Source: a virus (lineage: Duplodnaviria; Heunggongvirae; Uroviricota; Caudoviricetes). From it: a stretch of DNA of 40,193 bases. Numbering within the stretch: the stretch's first letter is position 1; each line of letters opens with the position of its first letter. The stretch lies in the IMG/VR virus record IMGVR_UViG_2671180415_000005. The stretch is one strand, 5' to 3'. The notes under the pieces were generated by a model. That model searched no databases. It worked only from the letters and a program-made list of their open reading frames with translations, and was not told the origin of the DNA. A program made the translations under genes and the position numbers. Below are positions 17,133 through 38,854 of the stretch, piece by piece.

Positions 17133-17135
17133 CTG

Positions 17136-18471: not shown

Positions 18472-18514
18472 ATTTGCCCTCCGCAGGGGCCGGGCCGTAA
18501 GCCCGGCTCACCGT

Positions 18515-21246: not shown

Positions 21247-21367
21247 ATTGCCTCCGCATAAAGGATGAATATAAAATAAACAGGCGGTCAGTGTACGCTT
21301 AACTGGTAAAGTCGGTGCCTGCCTCCGGGTGGATCATGTATGCGGGTTCGACCCCCGCCACTGACCG

Positions 21368-22699: not shown

Positions 22700-24281
22700 C
22701 CAGCATCCCCTTCATTTCCGCAGCAAACATGGCATCACTGAGCAGCGTCATCAGGCGGGAATCATCCATTTCACGGTAAAGGGCAGGCAGGTCTGCCAGT
22801 GCCTCCGCCAGCCCCCGCGTTCTGATGACATCAATGACCGGCTCCAGCACCGGATCGATGGCCTCCTGTAAGCGGCGGGCAGGCACCGCGTCCCCCATGT
22901 CGTCCAGTTCATCACGCGGCGTGTTTTTCGCTTCCGGCAGTCGGGCTGAAAGCGCCGTCTGTTCTGTCTTTTCCTGTTTTTCCGGTAGCGTTTCCCTGTC
23001 AGGCATGGCCGGTTCATTACTGCTCTGACGGACACGGAATATGGCTTCACCGGGCGTGGGCTGTGGAATACCGGTCTGATCCCGTACCCAGGGATCAGGA
23101 ATATCCATCCCCGCACTGAGTTGCATCACCGCACTGGCTATTTTGGTGATATCCCCCGGTTCTTTGGTCTGGAAACAGATACGCGGCAGGCGACGGATAT
23201 CAATGGCGTGGGCGGTGTTCAGGGCATACAGCGGATACACCAGATCGCGGTTCAGGGTTGCAGCCAGCTGGCGTAAATCAGAATCCCTGATTTCCCGGCG
23301 CACCTCGTTATGCACCTCACCCAGCGAGCGCGCGCCTTTGTCTCCGGCTTCTGTGGTCAGCGTGCCGCCGAGTATTGCTTTGGAGATGGAACGCTCACCC
23401 CACGAAATCATGGTTTCAAACGGATCGGCCTGACCGTTCGCTGCCGCCTGAAACTCCAGCGACATCCCGGCCGGGATGATCCCGCCTGTACGTCGCCCGA
23501 TATCCATCACCGCCCGCATCAGGGCACTTTTCTGCTCCGGTGTTGCCCCGGACGGGTATTTCCCGACCTTCATTGGCAGGCCGTACACCTCCAGAAATTC
23601 CGCCAGATCGCGCACGGAATAGTTTTTGAAAATGAACGGCCAGATAAGCGTTCTGACAAGCCCCGTCGCACCACCGTAGCCGGTGCGTGAACGCGACTGA
23701 TGCACTATCCAGCCAAAGGGCTGAAACGCCACCCCGGCATGGCTGCCGTCACGCAGCCGCAGTTCGCTCAAATCATCCGGGTTAAGGCAGAAATGCCCGC
23801 TGTCACGCCATCGGATGGCGCGGATGATGTGCATCTTACCGAGCATCCCGTGCTCAATCTCCATGCAGGAATAGCCCTTCAGGATGGCATCGGTGGCATC
23901 AAATAACATGGCATCAAACCAGTCGGCGGAATGCAGATATTCGTCGAGCATTTCCGCGTCCTTTTTCTCATTCGCGCTGGCGTTCGGTGGCGGCTCAATG
24001 CTCCATGGCACCCCCTGAATGGCAAGACGTCGCTTGCCCAGCTCCGCAAAAAGGTGGGTGTCCTTTTCTTCAATGTCAGCCGCCAGATCGGACTGGGCAA
24101 TCAGATCGCCACGTTCAGCCCCGCGAAGGCACTGCGCCGCCCGGTTCGGGGTGATACCCGAGGCGGGATGCTCAACATAACGGCTGGCAATCTGCGGAAT
24201 ATCCAGCGCGGTACTTTGCATCTCCGGGTCAAAGGAGAAAGGTTTTCCGTCAAGATCAATTATGCGTCCCACTACCAGCAC
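22683..24281 (-). CDS. Portal protein (Mu gp29 / H-like)
   Basis: 532 aa directly downstream of large terminase. Confidence 0.85.
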   Translation of the reverse strand: MLVVGRIIDLDGKPFSFDPEMQSTALDIPQIASRYVEHPASGITPNRAAQCLRGAERGDLIAQSDLAADIEEKDTHLFAELGKRRLAIQGVPWSIEPPPNASANEKKDAEMLDEYLHSADWFDAMLFDATDAILKGYSCMEIEHGMLGKMHIIRAIRWRDSGHFCLNPDDLSELRLRDGSHAGVAFQPFGWIVHQSRSRTGYGGATGLVRTLIWPFIFKNYSVRDLAEFLEVYGLPMKVGKYPSGATPEQKSALMRAVMDIGRRTGGIIPAGMSLEFQAAANGQADPFETMISWGERSISKAILGGTLTTEAGDKGARSLGEVHNEVRREIRDSDLRQLAATLNRDLVYPLYALNTAHAIDIRRLPRICFQTKEPGDITKIASAVMQLSAGMDIPDPWVRDQTGIPQPTPGEAIFRVRQSSNEPAMPDRETLPEKQEKTEQTALSARLPEAKNTPRDELDDMGDAVPARRLQEAIDPVLEPVIDVIRTRGLAEALADLPALYREMDDSRLMTLLSDAMFAAEMKGMLDGSGD

Positions 24282-25936
24282 CCCCGATCAAATTCATGAT
24301 ATGCCTCATCGTCATCACGATAACCGCCCTCCATTGCCCGCGACCGCTCCGGCAGCGCCTGACAGGCTGATTCATCCAGGATGAAACCCTCCATGTATGA
24401 CGCCCGGTTTGCCATACAGAGTGCCACGGCAAAATCACCATGGCGGCGGGCGTTCGCAGCCGTTGCGTTCTGGTCCTTCGTGCGCCCCTTGTCGATTTGC
24501 GGGATACCATTCACCACCTTCACATGGCGCAAATCATCAAGCGTGGTCTGATGGCGGGCGACGAGGATATTCTGATCTTCAAACTCGGCTTTCAGTTTTG
24601 GCATCCACTCGCCGTACCACTTCGGCGACAACATCACGCAGTCGATGATGTCCGGGCCAAAGGCCAGCAGTGCGGCCTCTGCCAGATAGCCGCCGTTACC
24701 GGTGGCGTCGAACGCCGCACCGACCAGCGCCGGAACGCGGGTCAGGATGTACATCATCACCTGTTCCTGCTGGGCATACGGCAGGTTGCGCAGCTCCACG
24801 CGAAACACCTCGCGCTTTGCCAGGAGTTCGGTGATTTCCAGCAGCACAAAGCAGGACAGGTCACCGGTGCGGGCAAAGTCTTCCCCGAAGCTGAAGCGGG
24901 AACGGGGATTTAATTTCTCTGTAAGCGGTTTTAAATGTTCTTCACACCAGGTTAAAACTTCCGATTCACGCAGCCATGCGGCACGGCTGATGAAGTCGTC
25001 CGGGGCTTCAAACGTCAGAATCGGGATGTCACGAATCATCGCCATTTCAATAAGCGCGTGAGGAATATAGGCACCGCCGGATTTTTTCGGGATACAGCCG
25101 TATTCCTCGTCGGCATCCTCACGGGTCGGGGCGTTTTTGTAGAGATCATCACGCCATTTCTGCTCGCTTTCCGGTGACCATTCCTGATCGGTGACGTAAC
25201 AGATACGACGGTACAGCCCGTCCGCAATGGCATCATCCAGGGTTATGCGGTGGACGCTGTAATCCTTGCGCCCCTCGCGGGCTTCCTGAATGTACTGATT
25301 AAACAGATTATCGACGCCGTTATGCGTGGAAATAATGCGCACGCGTGCGCCCCACATGGTAAGCGCCATTGCCGCCTTGAGAAGCTCATCCAGTGACTCG
25401 TGGAACGCGGCTTCATCAATCACCACATCCCCCTGAAGACCGCGCAGGTTTGACGGACGGGAAGACAATGCCTGAATTTTGAATCCACTGTTCGGAAAGC
25501 GGATCATGTAGGTCAGAATTTCTTCTTTTTTATCCCGATCCCAGAATGTCTGCTCATACACATCAGCATCTGCCAGCTGGTTAAAGGCACGGGAGAACAG
25601 CGCGCAGGCAGAAATATATTCCAGCGCCATCTCCTGTTTTGACCCCACATAAAACACATTACGGCCACCACGACGCTTAGGCTTTGCGGCGGTAATGACG
25701 TTACGCCCGGCTTCCGCCCAGGTAAGCCCGGTGCGTCGGGATTTCTCCGCGATGCAGACCTGACTTTCATCTGCAAACCAGCGGGCCTGATAATCCAGAA
25801 ACACCGGCATATCACCGGGCAAATCAAGGCTGTCCGGCACATCCACGCCCAGCAGGGCTTTTTCACCGGACAGATCAATTTTGCGGGGAGGTGTCATTTG
25901 TATCAGTGAAGGAGACTTTTCTTTGGCTTTGTTCAT
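24272..25936 (-). CDS. Terminase large subunit (Mu gp28-like)
   Basis: 554 aa; first gene of head module; acidic nuclease-type C-terminal region. Confidence 0.85.
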   Translation of the reverse strand: MNKAKEKSPSLIQMTPPRKIDLSGEKALLGVDVPDSLDLPGDMPVFLDYQARWFADESQVCIAEKSRRTGLTWAEAGRNVITAAKPKRRGGRNVFYVGSKQEMALEYISACALFSRAFNQLADADVYEQTFWDRDKKEEILTYMIRFPNSGFKIQALSSRPSNLRGLQGDVVIDEAAFHESLDELLKAAMALTMWGARVRIISTHNGVDNLFNQYIQEAREGRKDYSVHRITLDDAIADGLYRRICYVTDQEWSPESEQKWRDDLYKNAPTREDADEEYGCIPKKSGGAYIPHALIEMAMIRDIPILTFEAPDDFISRAAWLRESEVLTWCEEHLKPLTEKLNPRSRFSFGEDFARTGDLSCFVLLEITELLAKREVFRVELRNLPYAQQEQVMMYILTRVPALVGAAFDATGNGGYLAEAALLAFGPDIIDCVMLSPKWYGEWMPKLKAEFEDQNILVARHQTTLDDLRHVKVVNGIPQIDKGRTKDQNATAANARRHGDFAVALCMANRASYMEGFILDESACQALPERSRAMEGGYRDDDEAYHEFDRGCW

Positions 25937-26184
25937 CAGGCTTTACCTGTCAGAATGCTTTTGATTCGGAACTCAAGCTCTTCAGTCATCACGTCCACGC
26001 CACTCAACTCATCAGTGACAGCCCCTGCCAGCAGCGAATGCAGTTGTTCCAGGGATATTTCCCCGGCAATGCTGAGTTCAGTCAACTCACGACACGCTTT
26101 TATGGTTTCAGGAGGTAACTGTGTTGCAAGACTGAATGCCTTCTGATGAGCACTGCTCATCAGTGAGCGGTTATCTGTTACCAC
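25936..26184 (-). CDS. Small protein paralogous to the C-terminus of the upstream gp27-like protein
   Basis: LAGAVTDELSGVDVMTEELEFRIKSILTGKA versus gp27-like ...MANAVTDELRGVDGMSEQIEFRIRQMLLGKA. Confidence 0.5.
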   Translation of the reverse strand: MVTDNRSLMSSAHQKAFSLATQLPPETIKACRELTELSIAGEISLEQLHSLLAGAVTDELSGVDVMTEELEFRIKSILTGKA

Positions 26185-26194
26185 GATTCACCTC

Positions 26195-26776
26195 CTACGC
26201 CTTACCAAGCAGCATCTGCCTGATACGGAATTCTATCTGCTCGCTCATGCCATCCACGCCGCGCAACTCGTCGGTGACGGCGTTCGCCATCTCTTCAGCA
26301 AATGCGGCCCGGATTTCTTTTTCACGCTTAATGCTGCGCTCGGCGGCACTTTCCGCACGCTGTGCCGACAGGAGGATGTCCTTAATAAGGCGCATATCCA
26401 CATCGCTGTCGCTGTTCAGGGATTCGGTGGCGGCACGCAGACGGCGGTACATCAGGGCACGGGACATCTCCAGAATCAGTGCCGTGGTTTCACCGGTCGG
26501 CTTATCCCCCAGTTCGGCCATCATGGCTTTTGTCTGCTCGCGTAAATCACGCAGATTACGGGCAATCAGCTCATTACGGGAGGCTTCCCGGCTGATGGCC
26601 GCCGGTGAAAGCTGCTGCTCTTCCGGCAGGCCTGCCTCACGGATCAGACGGTTGATTTCCTCGCGGATCTGGACCTGCGTCAGGCGTTTTTCACGCAGCA
26701 TTTCCAGCAGCGGCTTACGGATGCTGTCGGGGAGCAAATCCACCTTGCGTACACGGCCACGCGTCGGCTTATCCAT
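26195..26776 (-). CDS. Mu gp27-like protein (candidate terminase small subunit / DNA-binding)
   Basis: 193 aa, N-terminus RVRKVDLLPDSIRKPLLEML matches the conserved gp27-family start; precedes terminase large subunit. Confidence 0.65.
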   Translation of the reverse strand: MDKPTRGRVRKVDLLPDSIRKPLLEMLREKRLTQVQIREEINRLIREAGLPEEQQLSPAAISREASRNELIARNLRDLREQTKAMMAELGDKPTGETTALILEMSRALMYRRLRAATESLNSDSDVDMRLIKDILLSAQRAESAAERSIKREKEIRAAFAEEMANAVTDELRGVDGMSEQIEFRIRQMLLGKA

Positions 26777-26778
26777 CG

Positions 26779-27069
26779 TTACCCCCTTGCGCGTGGTTTC
26801 TTCACACCCGGAACGGTGGCACGACCTTCCGCCACATCCTGACCCCGGCCGGTCAGTTCAGCGATGAAATAACCGTTAACAAGCGTGCGCTTACGCACCA
26901 GTCCCTGCTCAGCAAGCCAGGCAATGTGGGTGTGAACGGTGTCGCGGGACACGCGGTGGCCGTAATCATCCAGGCAGTCCTGAAGCACGGATTCGCCCAG
27001 TTCGCCGTTGTAATCCGCCAGCGACCGCAGAATGACAAGACGCTGATCTTCAGTAATGAAATCACTCAT
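26779..27069 (-). CDS. Hypothetical protein (possible winged-helix DNA-binding)
   Basis: 96 aa, synteny. Confidence 0.45.
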   Translation of the reverse strand: MSDFITEDQRLVILRSLADYNGELGESVLQDCLDDYGHRVSRDTVHTHIAWLAEQGLVRKRTLVNGYFIAELTGRGQDVAEGRATVPGVKKPRARG

Positions 27070-27373
27070 TGTGTTTTTTCCTTACAGCCTGCTCCAGCAG
27101 CAGTTCGTTCTGATGGGAGACGGATTTCAGGGTGGCATTGGTGGCCTTAAGCTCACCGCGCAGGGTGGTGATTTCGATATTGAGTCTGTTCACCTCCTGC
27201 TGCGTGGGCAGGCCGGAAATCCGGCTCTCCACCCGCTCAACCCGGTCGGAGAGTTTTTCAAAGGCCTCGCGGGGGACAAAGGTTTTGCGCATCAGCGCCA
27301 TAAAGATCCCCCCGGCTGTGGCCGTTGCCGACAGGATCGGCACGACATAATCTTTAACGATGCTGACCCACAT
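27062..27373 (-). CDS. Membrane protein with coiled-coil (holin/releasin- or spanin-like)
   Basis: 103 aa; N-terminal hydrophobic segment VVPILSATATAGGIFMALM then charged coiled-coil region; within lysis neighbourhood. Confidence 0.45.
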   Translation of the reverse strand: MWVSIVKDYVVPILSATATAGGIFMALMRKTFVPREAFEKLSDRVERVESRISGLPTQQEVNRLNIEITTLRGELKATNATLKSVSHQNELLLEQAVRKKHNE

Positions 27374-27581
27374 GACCGGCCTCCATGATGTTCTGGCAGT
27401 TCACACAACGGATGGCATCCGGCACGGCAACCAGACGGGCAGCCGGAATGTCACCCCCGCAGTCCGCGCATACACGCCTGCCCGGTGTCTCCGCCACCCG
27501 GCGCTTACGTGTCAGCCGGTCACAAAGGGCGCGTTCTGTTGCACGCTCCATGACTGCCTGAGCACAATCTGAATCATCCAT
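27354..27581 (-). CDS. TraR/DksA-family C4 zinc-finger protein
   Basis: CADCGGDIPAARL...AIRCVNCQ four-Cys motif at C-terminus; start taken at internal Met (MDDSDCAQAVMER). Confidence 0.7.
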   Translation of the reverse strand: MDDSDCAQAVMERATERALCDRLTRKRRVAETPGRRVCADCGGDIPAARLVAVPDAIRCVNCQNIMEAGHVGQHR

Positions 27582-27591
27582 ACCTTTTTCC

Positions 27592-27963
27592 TTACTTCGT
27601 CTTTCCTGCCGGAACAGCAGTCGTTCCGGCCATATCAGTAAATTCATGCTGTCGCTGTGTCTCCAGACGGCGGATGCTGGCCTTGTCCACGTTGCAGTTT
27701 TTAATCACCGCCAGCAGTTGCAGGTTGTAAGTGACCGATGCACCAAACGTGAACGGCTGCGGCGCGGGAGGGACCAGGCAGTCAGCCAGCCATTCAGCGG
27801 GGATCGGCACCGGCTTCACCGGCACGTATTTCACAGACGGCCCGCCGCACCCGGTCAGCCACATCATCAGGCACAGGCACAGCGGCAGCAGGCACCGTTG
27901 CCAGTGACCGGCGGACAATGCTCTGCTGTTCCTCGCTGTGCTGCATGTTCTGCTGTTTTTCAT
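27592..27963 (-). CDS. Candidate o-spanin (outer-membrane lipoprotein), overlapping i-spanin frame; start uncertain
   Basis: Hydrophobic stretch LLPLCLCLMMWLTGC with lipobox LTGC followed by Pro-rich sequence VKYVPVKPVPIP; alternative frame of the adjacent ORF. Confidence 0.4.
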   Translation of the reverse strand: MKNSRTCSTARNSRALSAGHWQRCLLPLCLCLMMWLTGCGGPSVKYVPVKPVPIPAEWLADCLVPPAPQPFTFGASVTYNLQLLAVIKNCNVDKASIRRLETQRQHEFTDMAGTTAVPAGKTK

Positions 27964-28144
27964 TCGTGGCCGCCTTGCTGATTTGTGAAATGAGTTGCAG
28001 GGTGCGTTGCTGGTTTGCCAGCACCAGACGGGCTTCGTCCCGTTCACGCACAAGCACATGATTATTGTCCTCAAGGCGCTGCGTCTTCTGGTGCATTCCC
28101 CATACCACGGCAGCCAGCACGCTCATCACCCCCAGCGCCGCCAT
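27794..28144 (-). CDS. Candidate i-spanin (N-terminal TM plus coiled coil); start uncertain (ORF open to 28315)
   Basis: MAALGVMSVLAAVVWGM TM segment then Gln/Arg-rich coiled-coil region; directly downstream of endolysin. Confidence 0.45.
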   Translation of the reverse strand: MAALGVMSVLAAVVWGMHQKTQRLEDNNHVLVRERDEARLVLANQQRTLQLISQISKAATNEKQQNMQHSEEQQSIVRRSLATVPAAAVPVPDDVADRVRRAVCEIRAGEAGADPR

Positions 28145-28256
28145 ACAGCCTCCGGCAATCAGGGCCGGTAAGGGATTGTTCACCGCAGACACAGCACACC
28201 CCGCAGCAGCACAACGGCACACAGCAGCGCAATCATGAGCGGTCGCCAGAAGCGGT

Positions 28257-28757
28257 TCAGACTTTCGGCAAATCGTAACGACATAACCATTCATCCGCCG
28301 AACGGCGGGCCTCAAGACCGGGGAGTTTTACCCCCTTTGAATAAATCCAGCGGATATACTGCTTACAGGACGCGGGCATCTGCCCGGCATTGATAAGGCG
28401 CAGGAGCGTGGAGTTGCGAAAGTTCGTTTCACCGGCCCAGAAAATCCAGGAGGCCAGCGCCACCGTCTGACCACGGGTAAGCGGCACCTGAACATGACGA
28501 TCGATAGCCGCAAAGGCCCATTTCATGTCCTTTTCCAGCAGCTCCAGACACTCTTCATCAGTTTTTGTCATCCCCGGTTTCACATCCGGGCCGGTATGGC
28601 CGTAACAGATGGTGGGGGTGCCGGTGGGATCAATGTACGTGGTGTTTTCTTTCCCTTCCCAGTAGCCGGTGTAGTGCGTGGCAATGGTGAACGTCCCGGC
28701 TCCGGCCAGAACAAGGGCAATCAGCTTTTTACGCAGGGGTGCGGGGAGTTTTGGCAT
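28257..28757 (-). CDS. lys: Endolysin, lysozyme (GH24-like) with N-terminal signal-anchor-release (SAR) type hydrophobic segment
   Basis: N-terminal LIALVLAGAGTFTIATHY then YWEGKENTTYIDPTGTPTICYGHTG (E...D...T lysozyme catalytic motif). Confidence 0.8.
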   Translation of the reverse strand: MPKLPAPLRKKLIALVLAGAGTFTIATHYTGYWEGKENTTYIDPTGTPTICYGHTGPDVKPGMTKTDEECLELLEKDMKWAFAAIDRHVQVPLTRGQTVALASWIFWAGETNFRNSTLLRLINAGQMPASCKQYIRWIYSKGVKLPGLEARRSADEWLCRYDLPKV

Positions 28758-28828
28758 TGTTACGCTGTCTCATGGTGTTCTCTGAGTCAGCGTAACCGTG
28801 GGAAAAAGTGGGCAGGATTTGCGGAATA

Positions 28829-29251
28829 TCAGAAAAGCCGTGGCTGCGTGCGTTCCTGATGCAGGCGACGCTGGTTGCGGATAACGGAGTAAATCTGCGT
28901 CTCTGACATCTGGTAGTGGCGGCGCAGGGTTTCAATTTTTTCGCCCTGGCTCCAGCGGGAAAAAATTTCATTATTGCGCAGTTCGGTGAAAAGGGATTCA
29001 CCGACCGGGAGATAATAACCACGCCCGCCCATGTACCCGGCCTGTGCGGCTGCAACCTTACGGGCAAGCATTCCCGCCTGAGCAGGTTCAATCCCCTGAC
29101 GGTGCAGTTCAGCACTGATCACATCAACCAGGTCCCGCAGCGTGCCGGGCCAGTTCTTTTTCAGCTCATCATCAGGAATATCATCCAGACGGTCAATCAG
29201 CGCGTGCAGCTGTTCGCTGTCACCAAACATGCTCATCTGTGTTTCAGCCAT
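28829..29251 (-). CDS. Mor/C-family transcriptional activator (middle/late gene activator)
   Basis: 140 aa; C-terminal ...GGRGYYLPVGESLFTELRNNEIFSRW...MSETQIYSVIRNQRR matches Mor/C family pattern; sits immediately upstream of lys. Confidence 0.75.
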   Translation of the reverse strand: MAETQMSMFGDSEQLHALIDRLDDIPDDELKKNWPGTLRDLVDVISAELHRQGIEPAQAGMLARKVAAAQAGYMGGRGYYLPVGESLFTELRNNEIFSRWSQGEKIETLRRHYQMSETQIYSVIRNQRRLHQERTQPRLF

Positions 29252-29321
29252 ACCCGCCTCCGGTCATCATTACACAGGGCAAGTTTAAAATAAAAATCCC
29301 GCGCTGTGGCGGGATTTGGGG

Positions 29322-29834
29322 TTAACGGGGGAATGATTTTTCATACAGCCTGCAAACACGCTCATAACTCATCACTGCACGTTCCGACATATCCAGGGCT
29401 GCCAGCATTTTGCGGCGGTGCCAGCGTTTGAGACGCTCCAGCACATCAGAGGCCAGCGCGGGTTGTTGCTCCAGCCACTGCCAGTTAGCCACACCTTCGC
29501 CGTCGTTCTGCGCGGCCGTCTGCGATTTCACCCAGCGGTTAAGGGCCGTTTCCCCGCCATCAGAGATAAATCCCTGCCGGTGCATCACTTTCCAGATGGC
29601 GCGAATTTTGGCGGTCACCGTACCCGGTTTTAAGGCCCGGTTAACCGGCTTCTGACGCACTTTAAAACCGCGTTTTTTGAAAACATCCAGCACGCGGGAT
29701 AACTCACCGGGTGACATATCACGGCAACTGGATTTGCCGGTGGCTGCCAGCAGCGCGGATGTATAGGTATCATGGTCAAGCTGTAGATCGCGTTTTGCGA
29801 CATGTATTAAGGTAATCAGGGAAGCGCGATTCAT
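29322..29834 (-). CDS. GemA-like protein (Mu gp16 family)
   Basis: 170 aa; N-terminus MNRASLITLIHVAKRDLQLDHDTYTSALLAATGKSS resembles gp16/GemA family start; position just before Mor-like gene as in Mu. Confidence 0.55.
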   Translation of the reverse strand: MNRASLITLIHVAKRDLQLDHDTYTSALLAATGKSSCRDMSPGELSRVLDVFKKRGFKVRQKPVNRALKPGTVTAKIRAIWKVMHRQGFISDGGETALNRWVKSQTAAQNDGEGVANWQWLEQQPALASDVLERLKRWHRRKMLAALDMSERAVMSYERVCRLYEKSFPR

Positions 29835-29856
29835 TATCGTGGCTCCATAAAAAATG

Positions 29857-29876
29857 GGCGGTGTTACCGCACCGCC
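29857..29876 (-). terminator. Intrinsic terminator-like hairpin 20 nt upstream of gemA-like start (minus-strand sense)
   Basis: GGCGGTG-TTACCG-CACCGCC; on the minus-strand RNA the stem is followed by CAUUUUUUAUGG. Confidence 0.5.
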
Positions 29877-29904
29877 ATGTCAATTAACATAAAAGGAAAA
29901 ATCT

Positions 29905-30144
29905 ATGTCAGATATAAAAAATGCACTTGATGTTGCCGCATTCACAATGGCTGGAAATCTTATGGTAACCCTGTTCGATAAGGGGCTGATTTCCCGTGAG
30001 GAGGCAATACATATTATCAATCTCGCTCAAAAAAACTCTACCCCGGAAAATGCAGAAGATATCCAGGATGGCTCATATATTAATACCGACTGGCATTTCG
30101 ACAATCTCCGGGCCTGTATGGGGATTACCGCTGAAAAAGATTAA
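29905..30144 (+). CDS. Hypothetical small protein encoded antisense to the early operon (AT-rich)
   Basis: 79 aa with AAGGA Shine-Dalgarno 8 nt upstream of ATG; convergent with and overlapping by 20 bp the 3' end of the neighbouring minus-strand gene. Confidence 0.45.
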   Translation: MSDIKNALDVAAFTMAGNLMVTLFDKGLISREEAIHIINLAQKNSTPENAEDIQDGSYINTDWHFDNLRACMGITAEKD

Positions 30145-30412
30145 AAATTTTTGCATAATGTTCAGATGTAAGAATTGCTGAACCATCAACACCGAGCCTA
30201 CGGCGAACGTATTCCTCGCGGGCTATTTTATTATCCAGAGATACAGCATCCTTAATCAGGTTAATCTCCCGCTCCATTATCAAAAGGGCTTCTCTGGCTG
30301 CAAGATTTTCTTTTATCGCATATTCGATAATGTCCCGCATACGTTCAAGCATGCCGATTTTAGCCAGTTCTTCGTCGATAGATTTAGGCGCAAATTTGAT
30401 TTCTTTTTCCAT
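30125..30412 (-). CDS. Hypothetical helical protein (AT-rich early-region gene)
   Basis: 95 aa from MEKEIKF (internal Met of ORF 30125..30427), start 2 nt after the stop of the upstream zinc-ribbon ORF. Confidence 0.5.
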   Translation of the reverse strand: MEKEIKFAPKSIDEELAKIGMLERMRDIIEYAIKENLAAREALLIMEREINLIKDAVSLDNKIAREEYVRRRLGVDGSAILTSEHYAKIFNLFQR

Positions 30413-30413
30413 A

Positions 30414-30557
30414 TTATTCATCCTCACAATTTATACATGCAGTGTCGTCGCCCATATCGCAGTGGTTACATTTTATCTCACCACAATGTGGGCACTCTTT
30501 CAGATACTCCGGGTCCTCATTTCCACAGGTGGGACATTCAACAATTTGCTCATCCAT
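30414..30557 (-). CDS. Small zinc-ribbon protein (47 aa), not in supplied ORF track
   Basis: Hand translation MDEQIVECPTCGNEDPEYLKECPHCGEIKCNHCDMGDDTACINCEDE; CPxCG ... CPHCG ... C-x2-C motifs; tightly packed between flanking genes. Confidence 0.5.
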   Translation of the reverse strand: MDEQIVECPTCGNEDPEYLKECPHCGEIKCNHCDMGDDTACINCEDE

Positions 30558-30882
30558 TATGTATCCCCTGTAATTCCGGCAAGGCCGAAAGATGGCACCA
30601 GTGCGTCACCTGTCCGTCCTCATCTTCAAGGCAGGCTCCGGTTTCTTCATCAATAAAAAAGCCTTCATACCCCATATGGCCGATGCGCAGTTCCTGTTGG
30701 TCACCATACTGAACAATCAGCACGACAGCCTCCATATCAGGCGGAAATGCGTCATCCAGTGAATGCCAGGGATAACCGCGCAAATCCCCGAAATAAACGC
30801 CGGTCAGCGTTCCGCCACAGAGCGGCATTCCGGCGGCACACACAAGAGGTTCATCTGATTCAACAAATAAGGTCGTTATCAT
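30550..30882 (-). CDS. Hypothetical early protein
   Basis: 110 aa, coupled to neighbours. Confidence 0.45.
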   Translation of the reverse strand: MITTLFVESDEPLVCAAGMPLCGGTLTGVYFGDLRGYPWHSLDDAFPPDMEAVVLIVQYGDQQELRIGHMGYEGFFIDEETGACLEDEDGQVTHWCHLSALPELQGIHNG

Positions 30883-31430
30883 GGCGTTAACTCCCGTAAT
30901 ACAGCGTCCTCGGCAGTCCGGCGACGGTAATAAACTGCGTGAGCAGAATGTTCAGATATTCCAAACTTTTCGCCAATTTCCCGGAATGACAGACGGCGTG
31001 GGTAATCGGAATCACGCAGCTCACGTATAAGACGTACATCATCATCAGATATGCGCGTGCCGGGGCGTAACTCTCCGCACTTTGTTAATCCAGCACCAAT
31101 CATTCCTGCCCGACATCTGACAGAATCTTTATTACGTCCGAGATATTCTCCCATTTGCTGGCAGGTCATTGTTCTGGCATTTTTTCGAATAAACTTATCT
31201 TCATCAGGTGTAAATCTTGGGTGTTTATATTTCAGTAACTCCGGGTATGAACTGCGCAATACACCAGTCCGGTTATATACAGCCCAGACAGTTCTTTTTA
31301 TTCTGGCAGCAATATCCTTAACCGGGGTGGATGAATAAAGCGCAATCAGCAGCGCATCTTCTTCAGGTGTCCACGGACGGACATGAGCGGGGGCGCGACC
31401 TTTTAGTCCCATGGGTTGTAATTTCATCAT
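30879..31430 (-). CDS. Hypothetical early protein with helix-turn-helix-like segments
   Basis: 183 aa; C-terminal LSFREIGEKFGISEHSAHAVYYRRR resembles an HTH. Confidence 0.45.
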   Translation of the reverse strand: MMKLQPMGLKGRAPAHVRPWTPEEDALLIALYSSTPVKDIAARIKRTVWAVYNRTGVLRSSYPELLKYKHPRFTPDEDKFIRKNARTMTCQQMGEYLGRNKDSVRCRAGMIGAGLTKCGELRPGTRISDDDVRLIRELRDSDYPRRLSFREIGEKFGISEHSAHAVYYRRRTAEDAVLRELTP

Positions 31431-31433
31431 GCA

Positions 31434-31949
31434 TCACCCCCTGACTCGCTTTTCAGCAGCATAAAACTCATCAGACAGTATTTCGGTCATTTTCTGTTTT
31501 GCGGGTTTTACGCCGCACTGAAGGTAAATCACATCGTCAACGCAGAACCACTTCACAGGGCCAAACAGGATTGCCGAGAAATCAATACCCAACCAGAACA
31601 ACAGCGCATCGGTTCTGGCATACGTGACGGGCGAATATTCACGCCACAGACTGTTCAGTTCATCAGAGGCAACACGCAGGGTTTTAGGGATACGTGATGT
31701 GCGCGGTGTGCAGCTCCAGCCATTCGACGCAGTCGGTTTTCGCCATAAGTCGCGATGAAAAGGATATTTGTCCTCCGTAAAACGCAGTCCCTTAAAGTAA
31801 AATCCACTGATACCGGATACAAATACCGACCGGCACGCAACATTCAGCACGGCCTCAAGGCGTTTTGCCTCATCCTTAACTTTCTGGCAGTCCTGCTGGT
31901 ATTTTTGCCACGCAGCCAGCGCGGAAGGGTTTGATGTTTTAAAGAACAT
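31434..31949 (-). CDS. Hypothetical early protein
   Basis: 171 aa ORF in operon context. Confidence 0.45.
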   Translation of the reverse strand: MFFKTSNPSALAAWQKYQQDCQKVKDEAKRLEAVLNVACRSVFVSGISGFYFKGLRFTEDKYPFHRDLWRKPTASNGWSCTPRTSRIPKTLRVASDELNSLWREYSPVTYARTDALLFWLGIDFSAILFGPVKWFCVDDVIYLQCGVKPAKQKMTEILSDEFYAAEKRVRG

Positions 31950-32482
31950 TACGCCACCTCCGCAGATATCCCGGCAGGCGCTGCTGTCCGGTCAACAATC
32001 AGGTAGCGCAGAACATGTTCAGTGATATTCCAGCCGCTTAAACCGCAGATAATGACGCCCAGGCGTATGTCGATATACGCCATCACAAACTGGGGCACGC
32101 CTTCTTTCATGGCCTGCTCATCAACTTCAGCCACCACATAAACGGTTTCACAGGTCAGAACGCCCTGAGCAAATTCCCACGCCATCGACGGAATATCATG
32201 CCCCTCAATCCATGGCAGGGATTTTCTGAAGCCGCACCACTGAACATCATCAGCCGCAGATTCCTGGCTGCATTTGCGACGAACCGGCTGCACCGGGCGG
32301 GGGCGCGGAATATCATAAAAACCGTTACATTCCGTCAGCACGCCTGCATCAACCGCATCACGCAAAAAATAAACCATGGAGGATGGCGGCATATTCATTT
32401 TTTCAGCCAGTACACCGCAGGTCAGGCGGCCATAAATACACAGCCAGTTTTTAACCCCTTCAAGCACTTTTGCATCAATCAT
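31949..32482 (-). CDS. Hypothetical early protein
   Basis: 177 aa ORF in operon context. Confidence 0.45.
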   Translation of the reverse strand: MIDAKVLEGVKNWLCIYGRLTCGVLAEKMNMPPSSMVYFLRDAVDAGVLTECNGFYDIPRPRPVQPVRRKCSQESAADDVQWCGFRKSLPWIEGHDIPSMAWEFAQGVLTCETVYVVAEVDEQAMKEGVPQFVMAYIDIRLGVIICGLSGWNITEHVLRYLIVDRTAAPAGISAEVA

Positions 32483-32627
32483 GATTTATTTCCCCACCAC
32501 ATTATTAATGACGATATAAACGTATTTCATATTTCTTAACCCTTATTTTCTGTTTTCAGGCGCAAGCAGTCCCCTGACGCGAGCGCCATAATTAAAATGA
32601 AGTGATATTTAATTGATTAATGTGGTG

Positions 32628-33158
32628 TTATTTATTCAGTCCGGCGTCCTGTTCAAAAGGCTCGACATAAAAACTTTCAGCGCCTTTATTCACCTTGATA
32701 CCGGCAATGCCTTTCACAGCATCCGGCTCCGCCAGGACGGCTTCCTTGTTCACTTCCTCTTTCGTGCGGATGAAACGCTCAAGCCCCATACGGCGCAGCA
32801 TTTCAATCACACCTTCCACATCACGGCTGACGCTGCATGATGGCGTTCCCAGCCGCCATGACACCGTTCCGGTGGTCAGATTGGCTGTTTTGGTTTTGCC
32901 GCCGTTCGTCAGCTCATCACGGTTGGTTTTGCACCAGTCCTGAATCCCTTTAAAAAGCACTTTGATTTGCTTTTTAAGATTTTCAATCTGCGGCGTATAA
33001 CGGGCGGTGATTTCTGCCACTTCGTCATTCATCGCCGTTTCCAGGCGCAGCGCCTCTCGCTGAATATCTCCCAGGGTGCGGATATCACGGCTGACTTCTT
33101 CCCGGGTCTGCGGTGCCGCCTCGGCTGCGGCCTTTAATTTTGTAACGCGTTTAGCCAT
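32628..33158 (-). CDS. gam: Gam-like host-nuclease inhibitor (Ku-like DNA end-binding protein)
   Basis: 176 aa; ...GDIQREALRLETAMNDEVAEITARY...WCKTNRDELTNGGKTKTANLTTGTVSWR...RFIRTKEEVNKEA matches Mu Gam pattern. Confidence 0.85.
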   Translation of the reverse strand: MAKRVTKLKAAAEAAPQTREEVSRDIRTLGDIQREALRLETAMNDEVAEITARYTPQIENLKKQIKVLFKGIQDWCKTNRDELTNGGKTKTANLTTGTVSWRLGTPSCSVSRDVEGVIEMLRRMGLERFIRTKEEVNKEAVLAEPDAVKGIAGIKVNKGAESFYVEPFEQDAGLNK

Positions 33159-33169
33159 TTTGTTTTTCC

Positions 33170-33463
33170 TTATTGCAGTGTGCCTGATGCTTTATGCACG
33201 CGGTGGCGTTTAATGATGGCATCCGCTCCAAAAGACTGTGCAGATGCCTGAAATTCCGCTGAGAGAAACTGAATAATTGCAGGACTGTGATACTGGAGAA
33301 TACTTGCATAAACGTCACAGAGTGACGTCGGCCTGTTATCCGTATCACGTTCTGTTTTCACATCCACTCCAATCTTTTCATGCACTTCAACACAGTCATT
33401 GCCTGCCAACTTTTCGTCATGCGAAACATGATTAAATTCAAAAATAACGCGTACTTTGCTCAT
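33170..33463 (-). CDS. Hypothetical early protein, tandem paralogue 2
   Basis: Starts MSKVRVIFEFNHV (internal Met), paralogous to upstream gene start MSKVVRIIFEYKE. Confidence 0.45.
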   Translation of the reverse strand: MSKVRVIFEFNHVSHDEKLAGNDCVEVHEKIGVDVKTERDTDNRPTSLCDVYASILQYHSPAIIQFLSAEFQASAQSFGADAIIKRHRVHKASGTLQ

Positions 33464-33467
33464 GGAA

Positions 33468-33740
33468 TTACCCCTGTTGATTAAATTCATTACCGTTAAT
33501 AACCCCGGAAGCCATGCCTCTGTCTTTCATGAATGCACTGGCTTTCATTGCCACAAACTCTGCGAAGTTTCTGCTTTCTGCCAGCATAACCACCCCAAAA
33601 ATCATGGCGGGTCCATTATCTTTCTTCTTTATTCCGGTTGAACGTATATCCAGACTTACCCCTCTGTGCGTGCTGCCATCAGAGTTTTTGCAGATAACAT
33701 CTTCCTTGTATTCGAAAATAATGCGTACGACTTTACTCAT
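33468..33740 (-). CDS. Hypothetical early protein, tandem paralogue 1
   Basis: 90 aa, MSKVVRIIFEYKEDV... Confidence 0.45.
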   Translation of the reverse strand: MSKVVRIIFEYKEDVICKNSDGSTHRGVSLDIRSTGIKKKDNGPAMIFGVVMLAESRNFAEFVAMKASAFMKDRGMASGVINGNEFNQQG

Positions 33741-33943
33741 CCTCTGGTCCTCGTTCTGTTTGGATAACTGACCCGGCGTCTAACCTCACGGCAGAACCGA
33801 ATCATGGCATTAAAGGCTTCTTCCTCCGTCACCGCTTCCGGTATCCCCGGAACCAGTAACTGCTCCTGTTCATCACGTCCATGACGCGCCATAACCTCAA
33901 TCACATGCCGTACCGTGGCAGGCTTTCCGGCAACTATCGGCAA
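33737..33943 (-). CDS. Hypothetical early protein
   Basis: 68 aa, overlapping stop/start with downstream gene. Confidence 0.4.
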   Translation of the reverse strand: MPIVAGKPATVRHVIEVMARHGRDEQEQLLVPGIPEAVTEEEAFNAMIRFCREVRRRVSYPNRTRTRG

Positions 33944-34018
33944 TGCACCTTCCGGCAGGACGTAACCAAACTCAATAAGACCACTCGACCACGCCCATGC
34001 AATGAGATTTTTTTCACC

Positions 34019-34285
34019 TCACACCTCCCAGTAAACCGTGCAGCCGCTGATGCGGGTGGCCTTCACACGGCGGCGCAGGCCGTTGGTCTGTATGGTGATT
34101 TCAATTTCACCGGTTCCCTGCACGTTGCCTACCGGCGGCGTGGTTTTCAGTGCAAAACGTTGCGGATAGCGCTTACTGCGTTCCAGTACCGCACCGGCAA
34201 GTTCGGTCAGACGGCGCGCGCTGTTCAGGGAGTCGAATAAATTCATTTTGTTACCGCAGGATTGCATATTCATATAACACCTCAT
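34019..34285 (-). CDS. Hypothetical early protein downstream of B (start uncertain, adjacent to assembly gap)
   Basis: 88-aa ORF; several in-frame Met candidates. Confidence 0.35.
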   Translation of the reverse strand: MRCYMNMQSCGNKMNLFDSLNSARRLTELAGAVLERSKRYPQRFALKTTPPVGNVQGTGEIEITIQTNGLRRRVKATRISGCTVYWEV

Positions 34286-34381
34286 TTAGCTGACTTGTTT
34301 CGCACCAACAGAACGGCATATTCCGCTGTAAACTTCTGTCGCACCTTCGCGATCAAGTCCGGCAGATATCACCATTCGTGT

Positions 34382-34640
34382 NNNNNNNNNNNNNNNNNNN
34401 NNNNNNNNNNNNNNNNNNNNNNNNNNNNNNNNNNNNNNNNNNNNNNNNNNNNNNNNNNNNNNNNNNNNNNNNNNNNNNNNNNNNNNNNNNNNNNNNNNNN
34501 NNNNNNNNNNNNNNNNNNNNNNNNNNNNNNNNNNNNNNNNNNNNNNNNNNNNNNNNNNNNNNNNNNNNNNNNNNNNNNNNNNNNNNNNNNNNNNNNNNNN
34601 NNNNNNNNNNNNNNNNNNNNNNNNNNNNNNNNNNNNNNNN
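34382..34640. other. Assembly gap (259 N)
   Basis: Run of N in the sequence; interrupts the 3' end of the B-like gene. Confidence 1.
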
Positions 34641-35442
34641 CCGGCTTTTCAGCGATAGCCTGCATGACGGCCAGCTCGGCCTCACCACTGATCCCCCACG
34701 CCATGGCAATGGCCAGCACATCCGCCTTTTTGGCCTTGCGAAGTTGTTTTGTACGGGCAAGACGGCTGAACAGGCGCGATAAATCATCAAAGGCGCGGCG
34801 TCCACCTTTAAACAATCCGCGCGGGTTACCAATAAGCACCATCCCGATCCCCGTGGCGTCCTGAATTGCCCGGAGTTGCTCCAGACCGTCAATACCAAGA
34901 TGATCCGCCTCATCCACAATCACCAGTCCACGCGTTCCCATCAGGCGACGGCGGATGGCGCGGGATAATGCCCCTTTGTTCGCGCGGGTGTAATCAATCC
35001 CCAGCGCATCGGCCAGCTCCAGCAGACACTCCGTGACGCTGGAGTGCGCGGGTGACAGGGTGATCATCCAGGTGTTTGGTTGCTCCTGGCAGTAATTACG
35101 GGCAGTGGCCGTTTTACCCACACCCGGTACGCCCACAATAACGTTAATACAGCCCATCAGGCGAACCGCCTGAAACAGTGCGCGCAGCTCCTGGACTGTC
35201 TGAGTTTCCACAAACTGCGGCGGTTCCGGCAGTGCGCTTTGTTTATTCCAGTTCTCATACCAGGAGCGCAGGGAAGCAGCCACAGCAGCGTTATCGCCTT
35301 TATATTTTCCCTTACGGAAAGCCGATAATGTGCCGTCGGAAATTCCCGCCTCTCTGGCGATGGCATACTGCGTCAGTACGCCGCCATCAATAAGTTCATC
35401 AATGGTCTTGATTACATCGTTAATATCGGTCATATTATTCAC
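34641..35442 (-). CDS. B: Mu B-like transposition ATPase (AAA+), C-terminal ~45 codons lost in gap
   Basis: N-terminal HTH then Walker A GVPGVGKT, ...LVIVDEADHLG (Walker B), ...KKADVLAIAMAWGISGEAEL; pattern matches Mu B throughout. Confidence 0.85.
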
Positions 35443-35515
35443 CTCGCTTGAGACAGCATTCTCCGAGACTGAAACCTCAAATAACCTGAGTCACCCCTCG
35501 GGTTATTTTTTTATT

Positions 35516-37603
35516 TCAGGCCAGCGGATCACTTTCTTTTAATTTCGCTTCGAGCAGTTGCAATCCCCGCTGGAAATTACGCTCGTATTCTTCATCAGGT
35601 TCATCGTCAGCGACCGGTTGCTGAACGGTCACCGTATTACCCACAGGGCGGTATATGTTTTCCAGCCAGGGCTCCTGCGGCTTGTGCTCCAGCACGTTGA
35701 CAACCTCATCCTCGGCATCACGGATTTTTTCCTCTGCGCGTTTACGCATGCCTTTAAGGCGCTGCTGCTGTTTGTAGTATTCCGCGCTGACAGGGAAGGC
35801 TTCGCGTTTATTGCCGTCCCATACCGCCTCGCAAATCACGCTGCCATCCGGGCGGCGCACGGTAATTCGTTCGGCATCATGAATGTCATAGCTGATAAGT
35901 ACCTTACGGCCATGCTCGTCACGCAGCTCGGGCGCGTAGTAAATATTATTCAGCCAGCGTATTTCACAGCGTCTTACAGGGCGCTCCACCATCGGCCGGA
36001 ACATATCCCGCAGTTCAACATCGGACAGCCATTCAATTTCCGTGTCCTCTTCCGCCAGGCGTTTTTTTCTGAACTCCGCCGGGCTGTAATGTTTACCGTT
36101 CGGCTTCATGGGTAATTCATCGTGCGGCCGGTTGTTGTACCACTCAACACCGTCACGAATGGCATCAATCAGTTCAGACCAGGACGGTAAATCACGCATC
36201 GCTGACTGCTGCCGGGCGTTCAGCCGTTTGCCCTGTTGCAGGGCACTGAATGCCGAGCGTAAATCGCGGTTGGTTTTACGTAACGTCTCGCGATCTGCTC
36301 CTTTCCCGAAATAGGTGCGGTATTTACGGGCTATGCGCATCGGTAATGTGCGGTTAAGCCGTTCGATAATGCCCCGTCCCTGCGGATTACCGGCAATCCC
36401 TGTCGGGTGATTAATCCCCAGTCGTGGCAGTATCCCCACAATCTCCTTATCCAGGACGTCGGCGGTTTCCCCGGAGCCATTATCCGAGTAATACAGAAAC
36501 GGTTTGCCATGATGGCGAATACCGTGCTGTATGGCACCGGCTACGGCGAAAACATTTTCAGCCAGGTCAAGGCTCCAGCCCACCACAAAGCGCGTGCCAC
36601 CGTCGATAACAAAGGTCACTTCCGGTGCGAATGGCCGCCCGTGAACCGGGTGCGCGCATTTCAGCTTCATGCCGTGACCGTCACCAATCCAGACATAATT
36701 CACCGGCATTCTGGACCAGTCGCGGCGCGTGAATCCCTCAAGCTGACGGTATTCACTGCCAGTTACCCGGCCTTTTTGTTTCACCACTTCCGGCAGTTTC
36801 TTCATTGCGCGGCGAATGGTGTCATAAGAGGGCATGATATCGAGCATATAAGGCTCATCAGCGTGCCGGTGCTGCCATTCAGCAACAAAATCCTCGTAAG
36901 CCTCGGTCATTGGTCGGCCGTTTGACTGGCGATACTGCGCCAGAAATTCGGGCAGCCAGTTAATATCTTCGGCTTTTATTTCCTGGCGTTTACCCGGTGC
37001 CAGTAAAAGCAGGCGTTCAGCGGCGTTCTGTGCCTTGTTAAAGGCCGCAATCCAGCGTTTCAGCGTGATTTCACTCAACGCGCGGCTGTTTCCCTTTTTG
37101 GCGTTCGCCGTCTCAACCATTGCCACAATGCGCTCGTCCAGTTGTGATCGTGCCAGGCTGTTAACGAGGAACCGGATAGCTTTAGCGCAGCTGAAACCGG
37201 GTTGTTGCGTGAATTTCAGCACCTCACTGACGATCGCAATGCGTGCGTCTGCCACCTGGCGCTGGTTTTCAGTCAGGGCATTGAGGCGTTCGACCATCAG
37301 TTGTGGTGATCCGCGATATGCCTCCACCGCATCAACCACGGCAGACGAGCGTCTGGCCTTTGTCACCACCGGAGCCGGTGATTCATCGGCTTTTTGCGTC
37401 ATCAGTTGCAGGGCATAACGTTCGCGTAATGCCTGCTGTGTCACTTCAGGTAAACAGTCAATGCTGTATTCAAAACCTTTAGCGCCTTTCTTGCGGCGTC
37501 TGCTGGTTTCGCTGGTTGCATACTTCCTGATTGAATAGCGAACGCCTTGCTCCGTTCCCGGCATCCCCGGTAATCCAACCAGTTCTTTAACTGAAGCAAA
37601 CAT
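35516..37603 (-). CDS. A: Mu A-like DDE transposase
   Basis: 695 aa directly after ner-like gene; size and position of MuA; large central catalytic region. Confidence 0.9.
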   Translation of the reverse strand: MFASVKELVGLPGMPGTEQGVRYSIRKYATSETSRRRKKGAKGFEYSIDCLPEVTQQALRERYALQLMTQKADESPAPVVTKARRSSAVVDAVEAYRGSPQLMVERLNALTENQRQVADARIAIVSEVLKFTQQPGFSCAKAIRFLVNSLARSQLDERIVAMVETANAKKGNSRALSEITLKRWIAAFNKAQNAAERLLLLAPGKRQEIKAEDINWLPEFLAQYRQSNGRPMTEAYEDFVAEWQHRHADEPYMLDIMPSYDTIRRAMKKLPEVVKQKGRVTGSEYRQLEGFTRRDWSRMPVNYVWIGDGHGMKLKCAHPVHGRPFAPEVTFVIDGGTRFVVGWSLDLAENVFAVAGAIQHGIRHHGKPFLYYSDNGSGETADVLDKEIVGILPRLGINHPTGIAGNPQGRGIIERLNRTLPMRIARKYRTYFGKGADRETLRKTNRDLRSAFSALQQGKRLNARQQSAMRDLPSWSELIDAIRDGVEWYNNRPHDELPMKPNGKHYSPAEFRKKRLAEEDTEIEWLSDVELRDMFRPMVERPVRRCEIRWLNNIYYAPELRDEHGRKVLISYDIHDAERITVRRPDGSVICEAVWDGNKREAFPVSAEYYKQQQRLKGMRKRAEEKIRDAEDEVVNVLEHKPQEPWLENIYRPVGNTVTVQQPVADDEPDEEYERNFQRGLQLLEAKLKESDPLA

Positions 37604-37605
37604 AA

Positions 37606-37836
37606 TTACGCGACCTTACGAATGTAGCGGCTGGGCCAAATCTCCTCGGGCGGCACCCCCAGGCATTCCGCGATAATCCCCTCATACTTGGGAACATGGC
37701 GGTATACCGCGTTGTACAGATTGTTCTGACCCACGCCAGCTTTACGGGCCAGCGCCCTCATGCTTCCTTCTCTGGCTCTGACTTCCCCCAAAATTCTTTG
37801 AGGATGCCAATCAGGCTTAACTTCATTTCTCGCCAT
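37606..37836 (-). CDS. ner: Ner-like DNA-binding regulator
   Basis: 76 aa; ...DWHPQRILGEVRAREGSMRALARKAGVGQNNLYNAV...EIWPSRY matches Ner/Nlp family. Confidence 0.8.
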   Translation of the reverse strand: MARNEVKPDWHPQRILGEVRAREGSMRALARKAGVGQNNLYNAVYRHVPKYEGIIAECLGVPPEEIWPSRYIRKVA

Positions 37837-38021
37837 GATTCATCTATCCTAAAAAGTTACGAAATTTGATAACTAAACTTAGTTATCAAGTTTGATATAA
37901 GTATTGATCCACTTCTGCTTCATGTAAAGCAAAAAAAACATCTTTCTTTTGTCTATTGTGGATCAATGGTTGCTGACAACACTAAAAGTTAATAATTTCA
38001 AATTGATAGGAAGAAAAGAAA
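37837..38021. promoter_or_regulatory. Divergent immunity control region (operators/promoters between ner and repressor)
   Basis: Perfect palindrome TGATAACTAA-AC-TTAGTTATCA at 37867..37888; inverted 10-mers ATTGATCCAC (37903..37912) and GTGGATCAAT (37959..37968); AT-rich. Confidence 0.6.
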
Positions 38022-38567
38022 ATGAACAAGCAAACAACAACATCTCTTTCTTTTCCTGGTGGTAGAAAAGAAAGCATTGCTGAGCGTCTGAAAAGGCTGA
38101 TTGGCTCCCGCAGCGTCAGAGCTGCAGCAAGAGATTGGGGGCTTTCATTTTCAACACTAAACAATTATCTGTCTCGTGGCACTGAGCCATCCTTAAGTGT
38201 CGCCCTTCAGATTGCGTCTATCGAAGGAGTAAGTGTTGAGTGGCTATGTGGATTCAGTGATGCATCACAAGTGAATCGGTGTGAGATCAAGGAAAATCAA
38301 GATGAAAGCAAGAAGATAATTATGACGATTATCAGCGCACTTGATGAAAAAGACTTAGAGCAGCTATCGAAAAATTTGGTTCTGAATGGAGCCAAGTACT
38401 TAGCTCGGTTGTTAGAGCCTGAAAATCAAGATCTAATCCGCTTAGAAGGAAGGAAAAGAATAGCTGCATTACAGCTTGAAGGTATGTCTGACGAACGCGT
38501 CAGAGAGATTTTGGAAGAAACTGAGAGAAGTCGCAAATCTAACGCGGTAGAACCAAAAGCGGGTTAA
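38022..38567 (+). CDS. Prophage repressor, XRE/Cro-C1-type HTH (functional equivalent of Mu c)
   Basis: 181 aa, divergent from ner/A/B; HTH-like ...SVRAAARDWGLSFSTLNNYLSRGTEPSLSVALQIASIEGVSVEWL; unlike Mu c itself. Confidence 0.65.
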   Translation: MNKQTTTSLSFPGGRKESIAERLKRLIGSRSVRAAARDWGLSFSTLNNYLSRGTEPSLSVALQIASIEGVSVEWLCGFSDASQVNRCEIKENQDESKKIIMTIISALDEKDLEQLSKNLVLNGAKYLARLLEPENQDLIRLEGRKRIAALQLEGMSDERVREILEETERSRKSNAVEPKAG

Positions 38568-38640
38568 TAGCATTAGCCCGCATTTTGCACTATATCGAGT
38601 ATTTCGCATTGTTTGGAACGCCTTAAAAGACTAAAACCAC

Positions 38641-38796
38641 AGTATCAAATGAGTTGCCGATTTTATAATAAATGACTAATTATTGCACAATCGGTATCAA
38701 ATAGACCTTATCCGCACATCTAGCCATCACCTGTTTTATTTCAGTATCTTACAGGTGATTTCACCTCCTTTCACTAAACCCCTTGTCGGTATCAAA
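38641..38796. repeat. Three GGTATCAAA / AGTATCAAA transposase-binding-like repeats at the repressor-proximal (left) prophage end
   Basis: Sites at 38641..38649, 38693..38701, 38788..38796, i.e. about 17, 112 and 164 bp from the inferred end, matching Mu L1/L2/L3 spacing. Confidence 0.6.
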
Positions 38797-38812
38797 TGAT
38801 TCACCTGGTTAT

Positions 38813-38817
38813 AATAC
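38813..38817. repeat. 5-bp target-site duplication AATAC (copy at prophage left-end junction)
   Basis: See 186..190. Confidence 0.6.
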
Positions 38818-38854
38818 CGCTGTGTTTAATAAATTCACGTCTTGTTAATGTCAT
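38813..38854 (-). pseudogene. torZ: torZ 5' fragment (codons 1-14 with Tat motif), separated from the rest of the gene by the prophage
   Basis: Minus strand ATG at 38854 with GGAGG upstream: MTLTRREFIKHSGI, then prophage sequence. Confidence 0.7.

Follow-up and report, generated by a model that had tools for sequence, protein, structure and literature searches.

A prophage in torZ assigned to the Sp18-type Mu-like family, with TA at both termini and a 4-bp target-site duplication

For phage Mu, cleavage is described as taking place at a conserved CA dinucleotide (PMC3562280, PMC3145075). Termini of the form TG...CA are not strictly defining for Mu-like phages (PMC8705779, PMC2628397). Phage B3 makes a 6-bp duplication (PMC8705779, PMC2628397), prophages of Leptospira have TA-TA ends and 6-bp repeats (PMC8705779), and KS10 is without TG...CA (PMC2628397). 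For Sp18 of E. coli O157:H7 Sakai, the DNA was found to be efficiently packaged and a circular form was not detected, as for Mu (PMC2669165). Six putative A-binding sites of Sp18 are already noted in a passage of PMC2628397 that cites Morgan et al. 2002.

In this study, we analysed a 40,193-nucleotide stretch of viral DNA (IMG/VR record IMGVR_UViG_2671180415_000005), called the window throughout, in which torZ sequence lies on both sides of a 38.6-kb prophage (Table 1). The prophage is an additional copy of the known Sakai Sp18 family, found here at a new insertion site; it shares with this family near-identical ends, termini and site positions, an A protein more than 90% identical, and the same gene order. 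We are highly confident that it is a member of the Sp18-type Mu-like family that was inserted in torZ by DDE transposition and that it occupies 191..38813. The phage is reversed relative to the window, with its left at the window's right and its right at the window's left, and positions 38641-38817 form the attL region, the left (c, repressor-side) attachment end.

Table 1. Features of the prophage and its flanks, in window coordinates unless another record is named
Feature	Position	Strand	Basis or remark
IS600 copy end in torZ	1..128 (boundary about 125-129)	.	99-100% matches to IS600/IS3-family transposase ends
torZ fragment flanking the mom end	129..190	-	window 119-190 matches torZ at 95.8%; K-12 torZ alignment
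Target-site duplication copy 1, ATAC	187..190	.	4-bp repeat adjoins the ends; empty site has one
Sp18-type Mu-like transposable prophage (highly probable assignment)	191..38813	-	38,623 bp; junction comparison, gene order as Sakai Sp18
Right (mom-end) terminus, 5'-TATA	191..194	+	TATA invariant in 29-30 distinct junctions
R1 core TTTGATAC	208..215	+	nt 18-25 from terminus; same position in Sp18
R2 core TTTGATAC	230..237	+	nt 40-47; 22 bp from R1, spacing as Mu
R3 core TTTGATAC	265..272	+	nt 75-82
ORF containing mom (adenine modification)	319..1251	-	Pfam Mom, E = 1.6e-77; annotated homologues 738 nt
ORF containing MuB-like AAA+ transposition ATPase	34369..35442	-	AAA_22 and Phage-MuB_C; annotated homologues 933 nt
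Transposase A, 695 aa	35516..37603	-	Mu-transpos_C, HTH_Tnp_Mu_1; integrase-type core, MuA I-alpha domain
Repressor-like HTH protein, c-gene position	38022..38567	+	HTH_3 E = 2e-4, below the Pfam cut-off; transcribed towards the end
L3 core TTTGATAC	38642..38649	-	nt 165-172 from terminus
L2 core TTTGATAC	38694..38701	-	nt 113-120
9-bp inverted repeat ATCACCTGT...ACAGGTGAT	38726..38759	.	perfect, 16-nt spacer, in the L1-L2 spacer, conserved in Sp18
L1 core TTTGATAC	38789..38796	-	nt 18-25
Left (c-end) terminus, ...GGTTATA-3'	38810..38813	+	TA-3' here, CA-3' in Sp18
Target-site duplication copy 2, ATAC	38814..38817	.	paired junctions, empty site, GenBank sister element
First ~41 nt of torZ	38814..38854	-	start codon complement 38852-38854
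torY	38879-39979	-	beyond the torZ start
RefSeq 'tRNA-OTHER'	L003 21343-21423; L004 18046-18125; L005 21385-21465; L006 18043-18123		

The genes at the c end include a Mu-like transposition module, with a DDE transposase carrying Mu-type domains and an adjacent MuB-like ATPase. Transposase A scored 63 bits against PF09299 (cut-off 21.7) and 35.7 bits against PF02316 (cut-off 23.3), and phmmer against the PDB gave matches to integrase-type cores at residues 362-424. At E <= 0.001 the same search returned only the MuA I-alpha domain and retroviral integrase cores, and no MuA catalytic core. The MuB-like ORF lies directly downstream of A and scored 65.7 bits for AAA_22 and 38.3 bits for Phage-MuB_C, and relatives of the ORF at 38022..38567 are annotated as transcriptional regulator. 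Megablast of the A-B-c region retrieved no Mu, D108 or SfMu record; judged by these comparisons, the prophage is not close kin of Mu, D108 or SfMu and would fall outside the genus Muvirus.

The A proteins of the window, which has TA at its left terminus, and of Sp18, which has CA, are 94% identical, with the differences almost confined to the first ~35 aa. These N-terminal differences probably go with the repressor/operator region and not with end recognition. The region has the look of an immunity-module swap, in that the first ~35 aa of A (window 37500-37603) and the c-end DNA (38022-38812) have diverged and the mom end is 96% identical to that of Sp18. Mu and D108, which differ in their immunity module, provide a parallel. 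In Sp18-type prophages, the RefSeq annotation places a 'tRNA-OTHER' between the genes for head morphogenesis and virion morphogenesis (Table 1); ARAGORN found no tRNA anywhere in the window.

The boundaries were read from family junctions in E. coli RefSeq genomes, IMG/VR contigs and metagenome contigs, with 43 distinct c-end and 30 distinct mom-end junctions used. The results showed that the constant sequence of the c end is ...CCTGGTTA[C/T]A-3' in the 43 junctions, followed outward by a random base, and that its last base is A in all of them, whatever the target. The constant sequence of the mom end begins 5'-TATAGCGCGG in 29-30 distinct junctions and is preceded by a variable base. Information content accordingly falls from 2 bits inside to about 0 directly outside the family ends. 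Since the A at 38813 is invariant and variation is found only beyond it, the last base of the prophage is 38813. With the edge set there, L1 and R1 both lie at nt 18-25 from the tips, and the c end aligns with the canonical Sp18 sequence 5'-TGTAACCAGG. A 17-mer scan of the metagenome contigs gave many chance matches; candidates L041, L043, L045, L049, L050 and L070, which had passed a lenient anchor, lacked the neighbouring sites and were excluded as family ends.

The original prediction had let the element end at 38812, which is contradicted by the A kept in every distinct c-end junction. It had also considered that the junction might be offset by a few bases, and this is correct for one base and for the c end only; the shift does not restore TG...CA. 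A divergent transposase or end specificity had been offered as the other explanation, and it holds in part, with tips that are truly non-canonical and a transposase that is a distant relative of MuA, next to an offset that is also present.

The sequence AATAC is found at 186-190 and at 38813-38817, and intact torZ of K-12 W3110 (...CCAGCGGCAATACCGCTGTG...) has it once, indicating that the insert and a duplication are real. To determine the length of the duplication we turned to the insertions of the family with both flanks. The direct repeat touching the family ends was exactly 4 bp in 20/20 of these insertions, which comprise 19 plus the Mu-like insert in the Stx2c phage LC727881.1 and are few for a target consensus. 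The complete pairs came from RefSeq in 14 cases, the 232 E. coli genomes with the family having about 280 copies in all, and from other sources in 6. In LC727881.1 the repeat is GATG, and the GenBank feature table labels the same 4 bp 'duplication due to insertion of Mu'. An A at the position needed for a 5-bp repeat was present in only 7 of the 20 sites, which is the level of chance; the window is among these seven, and AATAC therefore resembled a Mu-type 5-bp duplication. As the A of 38813 is a prophage base, the extra A of AATAC is not target, and the duplication is ATAC.

These data bear directly on the reading in which the element spans 191..38812, with a Mu-type 5-bp AATAC duplication and termini 5'-TA...AT-3'. 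AATAC is indeed a perfect 5-bp direct repeat in the window that occurs once in the empty site, and Mu duplications are 5 bp (PMC3562280). We nevertheless consider this reading highly improbable, because it would make target DNA of an A that is constant in 43/43 distinct junctions, leaves the fifth base mismatched in 13 of the 20 insertions, sets L1 (nt 17) and R1 (nt 18) at unequal distances from the tips, and disagrees with the 4 bp annotated in LC727881.1; it would also break the symmetry of the target preference described below. Other assignments fared no better. A 5-bp model with the A reassigned to the target fails in 13/20 sites, one with the T reassigned to the target fails in 17/20, and a 6-bp A-NNNN-T duplication also fails at the paired sites. 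End contigs from the same draft genome without a common repeat (L024/L019, L035/L021 and L038/L010) were left out as pairs; draft genomes with such non-matching end contigs probably hold several copies or rearrangements. In the literature searched, no paper gave 4 bp as the duplication length of Sp18-type phages; GenBank feature tables do record it. The predicted AATAC repeat is thus real and single in empty torZ, but the duplication proper is the 4-bp ATAC, and its supposed Mu-like length of 5 bp is not supported by the 20 insertions and the annotated sister element.

The flanks of the family carry a target preference of their own. At outward position 6 of either end, C was present in 40 of 73 distinct flanks (p = 5e-8), giving a two-fold symmetric preference G-N-[NNNN]-N-C over the 73 flanks; inside the 4-bp duplication, position 2 is poor in C and position 3 is poor in G (73 junctions). 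Such symmetry is expected from a symmetric transpososome cutting 4 bp apart and supports the 4-bp duplication.

With the prophage delimited at 191..38813, the termini of the window copy read 5'-TATA...TATA-3', compared with TATAGCGC.../...GGTTAT under the uncorrected edge. Both tips are TA, so the 5'-TG...CA-3' termini are absent, as the original prediction had pointed out. At the mom end, the transferred strand is ...GCGCTATA-3' in 30/30 distinct junctions, with TA-3' instead of CA-3'. At the c end, 31 of the 43 distinct junctions have C before the final A and 12 have T, and the window is among those with T. The TA left ends belong to 12 distinct insertion sites and to at least three c-end sequence backgrounds, and at 7 of the 12 sites the c-end region is 99-100% identical to that of the window although the targets are different. 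The occurrence of TA copies at many different sites indicates that TA-ended copies transpose.

The same counts weigh against a reading in which the left TA is a disabling CA-to-TA mutation that stranded this copy in an otherwise canonical family. CA is found at the c end of most members (31/43), and CA is the conserved cleavage dinucleotide in the Mu literature (PMC3562280, PMC3145075), from which a lower efficiency of TA ends could follow. A disabled end, however, is difficult to reconcile with 12 insertion sites in at least three c-end backgrounds, with seven near-identical copies in different targets, which imply that the variant moved after it arose, and with a right end that is TA in every copy of a clearly mobile family. 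We therefore regard a disabling mutation as very unlikely. In the preferred reading, the Sp18-type transposase appears to accept pyrimidine-A, either CA or TA, at the cleaved tip. It is likely that the Sp18-type enzyme is a natural MuA-family transposase that combines CA or TA tips, 4-bp joining and the symmetric G-N-[NNNN]-N-C preference. If this is true, the Sp18 family is a natural comparison for the determinants of stagger length and tip specificity in Mu-type transpososomes; CA and TA at one end, TA always at the other, and a 94%-identical transposase would amount to a natural experiment on the 'conserved CA' and on the stagger.

We then examined the repeats at both ends. We counted 7 copies of the core TTTGATAC in the window, where 1.0 would be expected; a count of 7 was reached in none of 100 shuffles. 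Six of the seven copies lie at the ends in inverted orientation (Table 1), at 18/113/165 nt from the tip at the c (repressor) end and at 18/40/75 nt at the mom end. The original prediction had given 17/112/164 for the left and 17/39/74 for the right, which agrees in layout if left is taken as phage left, that is, the right of the window, and needs the correction to the values above. Its Mu-like arrangement of three plus three sites was confirmed, R1 and R2 being 22 bp apart and L1 and L2 widely separated, as in NC_000929.1, and so was its statement that the repeat consensus is not the Mu A-binding consensus, the core being TTTGATAC(C) here versus CGAAA(A/G) in Mu. Sp18 has cores at the same six positions, even though identity in the c-end region around them is only about 71-80%. 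By their position, conservation and analogy with Mu, the TTTGATAC repeats are putative A-binding sites, three per end with asymmetric spacing.

The L1-L2 spacer, which in Mu is the location of HU binding, contains the perfect inverted repeat listed in Table 1. A TCACCTG(T/G)TT motif resembling this repeat recurs beside L1 (38801-38810). Promoter and terminator scans of 37500-38900 gave results no better than shuffles.

One could suppose that the repeats and the duplication arose by chance and that the element was integrated by site-specific recombination, and the short length of the repeats is the one point in its favour. This is extremely improbable in view of the excess of TTTGATAC (7 versus 1.0 expected, 0/100 shuffles), of the conservation of its positions in Sp18 despite the divergence of the c end, of insertion sites that differ among genomes, and of the presence of a DDE transposase with MuB; moreover, no circular form of Sp18 DNA was detected (PMC2669165). 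Insertion at many unrelated sites with a short duplication, seen in 20 insertions in different genes, is a feature of Mu-like transposition.

For integration by transposition, we propose the following course. The 695-aa A transposase, with the MuB-like ATPase, would assemble on the three TTTGATAC(C) sites of each end. A would then nick after the terminal pyrimidine-A, which is TA-3' in every case at the right end and CA-3' or TA-3' at the left, and the two 3'-OH ends would be joined to target phosphates 4 bp apart. Repair of the gaps would leave a 4-bp duplication, here ATAC. The point of nicking, the 4-bp stagger and the role of A as repeat-binding protein are proposed by analogy with Mu (PMC3562280, PMC3145075), the first two being read from genomic scars. 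Mobility is claimed for the Sp18-type family, and activity of the window copy itself is putative.

Outside the prophage, torZ is interrupted twice, by the prophage and by the IS600 end ~60 bp from the mom end, and would remain inactive without the prophage. Excision of 191..38812 had been predicted to restore the torZ reading frame; this holds for the local sequence, but the IS600 end still interrupts torZ ~60 bp away. In L114 and L115 the same IS600 end, ...CTCAGGCTACCTCACTTC, adjoins different flanks, and a search with the IS600-flank pattern matched other IS600 copies only. This torZ insertion was found in none of 5426 complete E. coli genomes, and the exact torZ-prophage junction had no match among 185,579 representative genomes. 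In E. coli JMF1 (L002, NZ_CM139231.1, 600-614), a mom end 99.8-100% identical to that of the window lies in a DUF6531/Rhs gene. Its flank, GCAGCAATAC|TATA, compared with GCGGCAATAC|TATA at window positions 181-194, has seven identical bases including ATAC, which may reflect chance or target preference. No c end lay at the expected distance in the JMF1 copy.

Sp18-type ends were detected in about 232 of the 5426 E. coli genomes, in many different genes. The metagenome contig QZLY01000953.1 (L080, 13.1 kb) has both family ends ~12.5 kb apart with a 4-bp repeat, CAGT, and represents a derivative with an internal deletion or replacement in which the transposition scar persists. NZ_CM128582.1 (strain 600029) and NZ_AP022815.1 (JE86-ST05) hold two or three copies each, with mom and c ends 99.4-100% identical to those of the window and hundreds of kb to Mb apart, which suggests rearrangements between copies. 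For annotation, these results mean that Sp18-type prophages should be delimited as 5'-T(G/A)TAACCAGG...GCGCTATA-3' with a 4-bp duplication. Search tools built on TG...CA and 5 bp would misplace their edges by one base or miss the prophages.

Compared with the described systems, the prophage is closest to Sakai Sp18. The two agree in gene order, in the placing of all six TTTGATAC cores and in the TATA right terminus, their mom ends are 96% identical, and the 4-bp duplication is common to Sp18 and its STEC relatives, such as the LC727881.1 insert. They differ in the c end, where the last 333 nt are about 80% identical and a stretch of 577 nt is 71% identical, in a distinct repressor/operator region, in the left terminus, which is TA in the window and TG/CA in Sp18, and in the insertion site, torZ, at which no copy was found in the 5426 complete E. 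coli genomes.

The prophage resembles Mu (NC_000929.1) in having c-ner-A-B and com-mom at opposite ends, an R1-R2 spacing of 22 bp, a long spacer between L1 and L2 (95 bp in the window, 105 bp in Mu), and insertions at many sites that are unrelated to each other; in the Sp18-type family, the left end starts with TGTA, as in Mu. The cores of Mu lie at 22/127/167 (L) and 22/44 (R). In contrast, Mu has TG at both tips (TG...CA), where this family has TA or CA, a duplication of 5 bp (PMC3562280) rather than 4 bp, and a CGAAA(A/G)-type site in place of the repeat core TTTGATAC(C).

Among isolated phages, the closest transposase is that of SuMu of Haemophilus (43% identity over 95% of the protein), and those of the D3112 group of Pseudomonas are about 30% identical; these phages have other hosts and other end repeats. 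The ends of the SuMu record are host flank DNA, and it was excluded from the comparison of termini. The general picture of Mu-type transposition is unchanged by these findings, related exceptions being already in print. As in B3, the Leptospira prophages and KS10, TA termini and duplications other than 5 bp do occur among Mu-like phages, but theirs are 6 bp or none was detected, whereas the family described here has 4 bp and, at one of its ends, a mixture of CA and TA.
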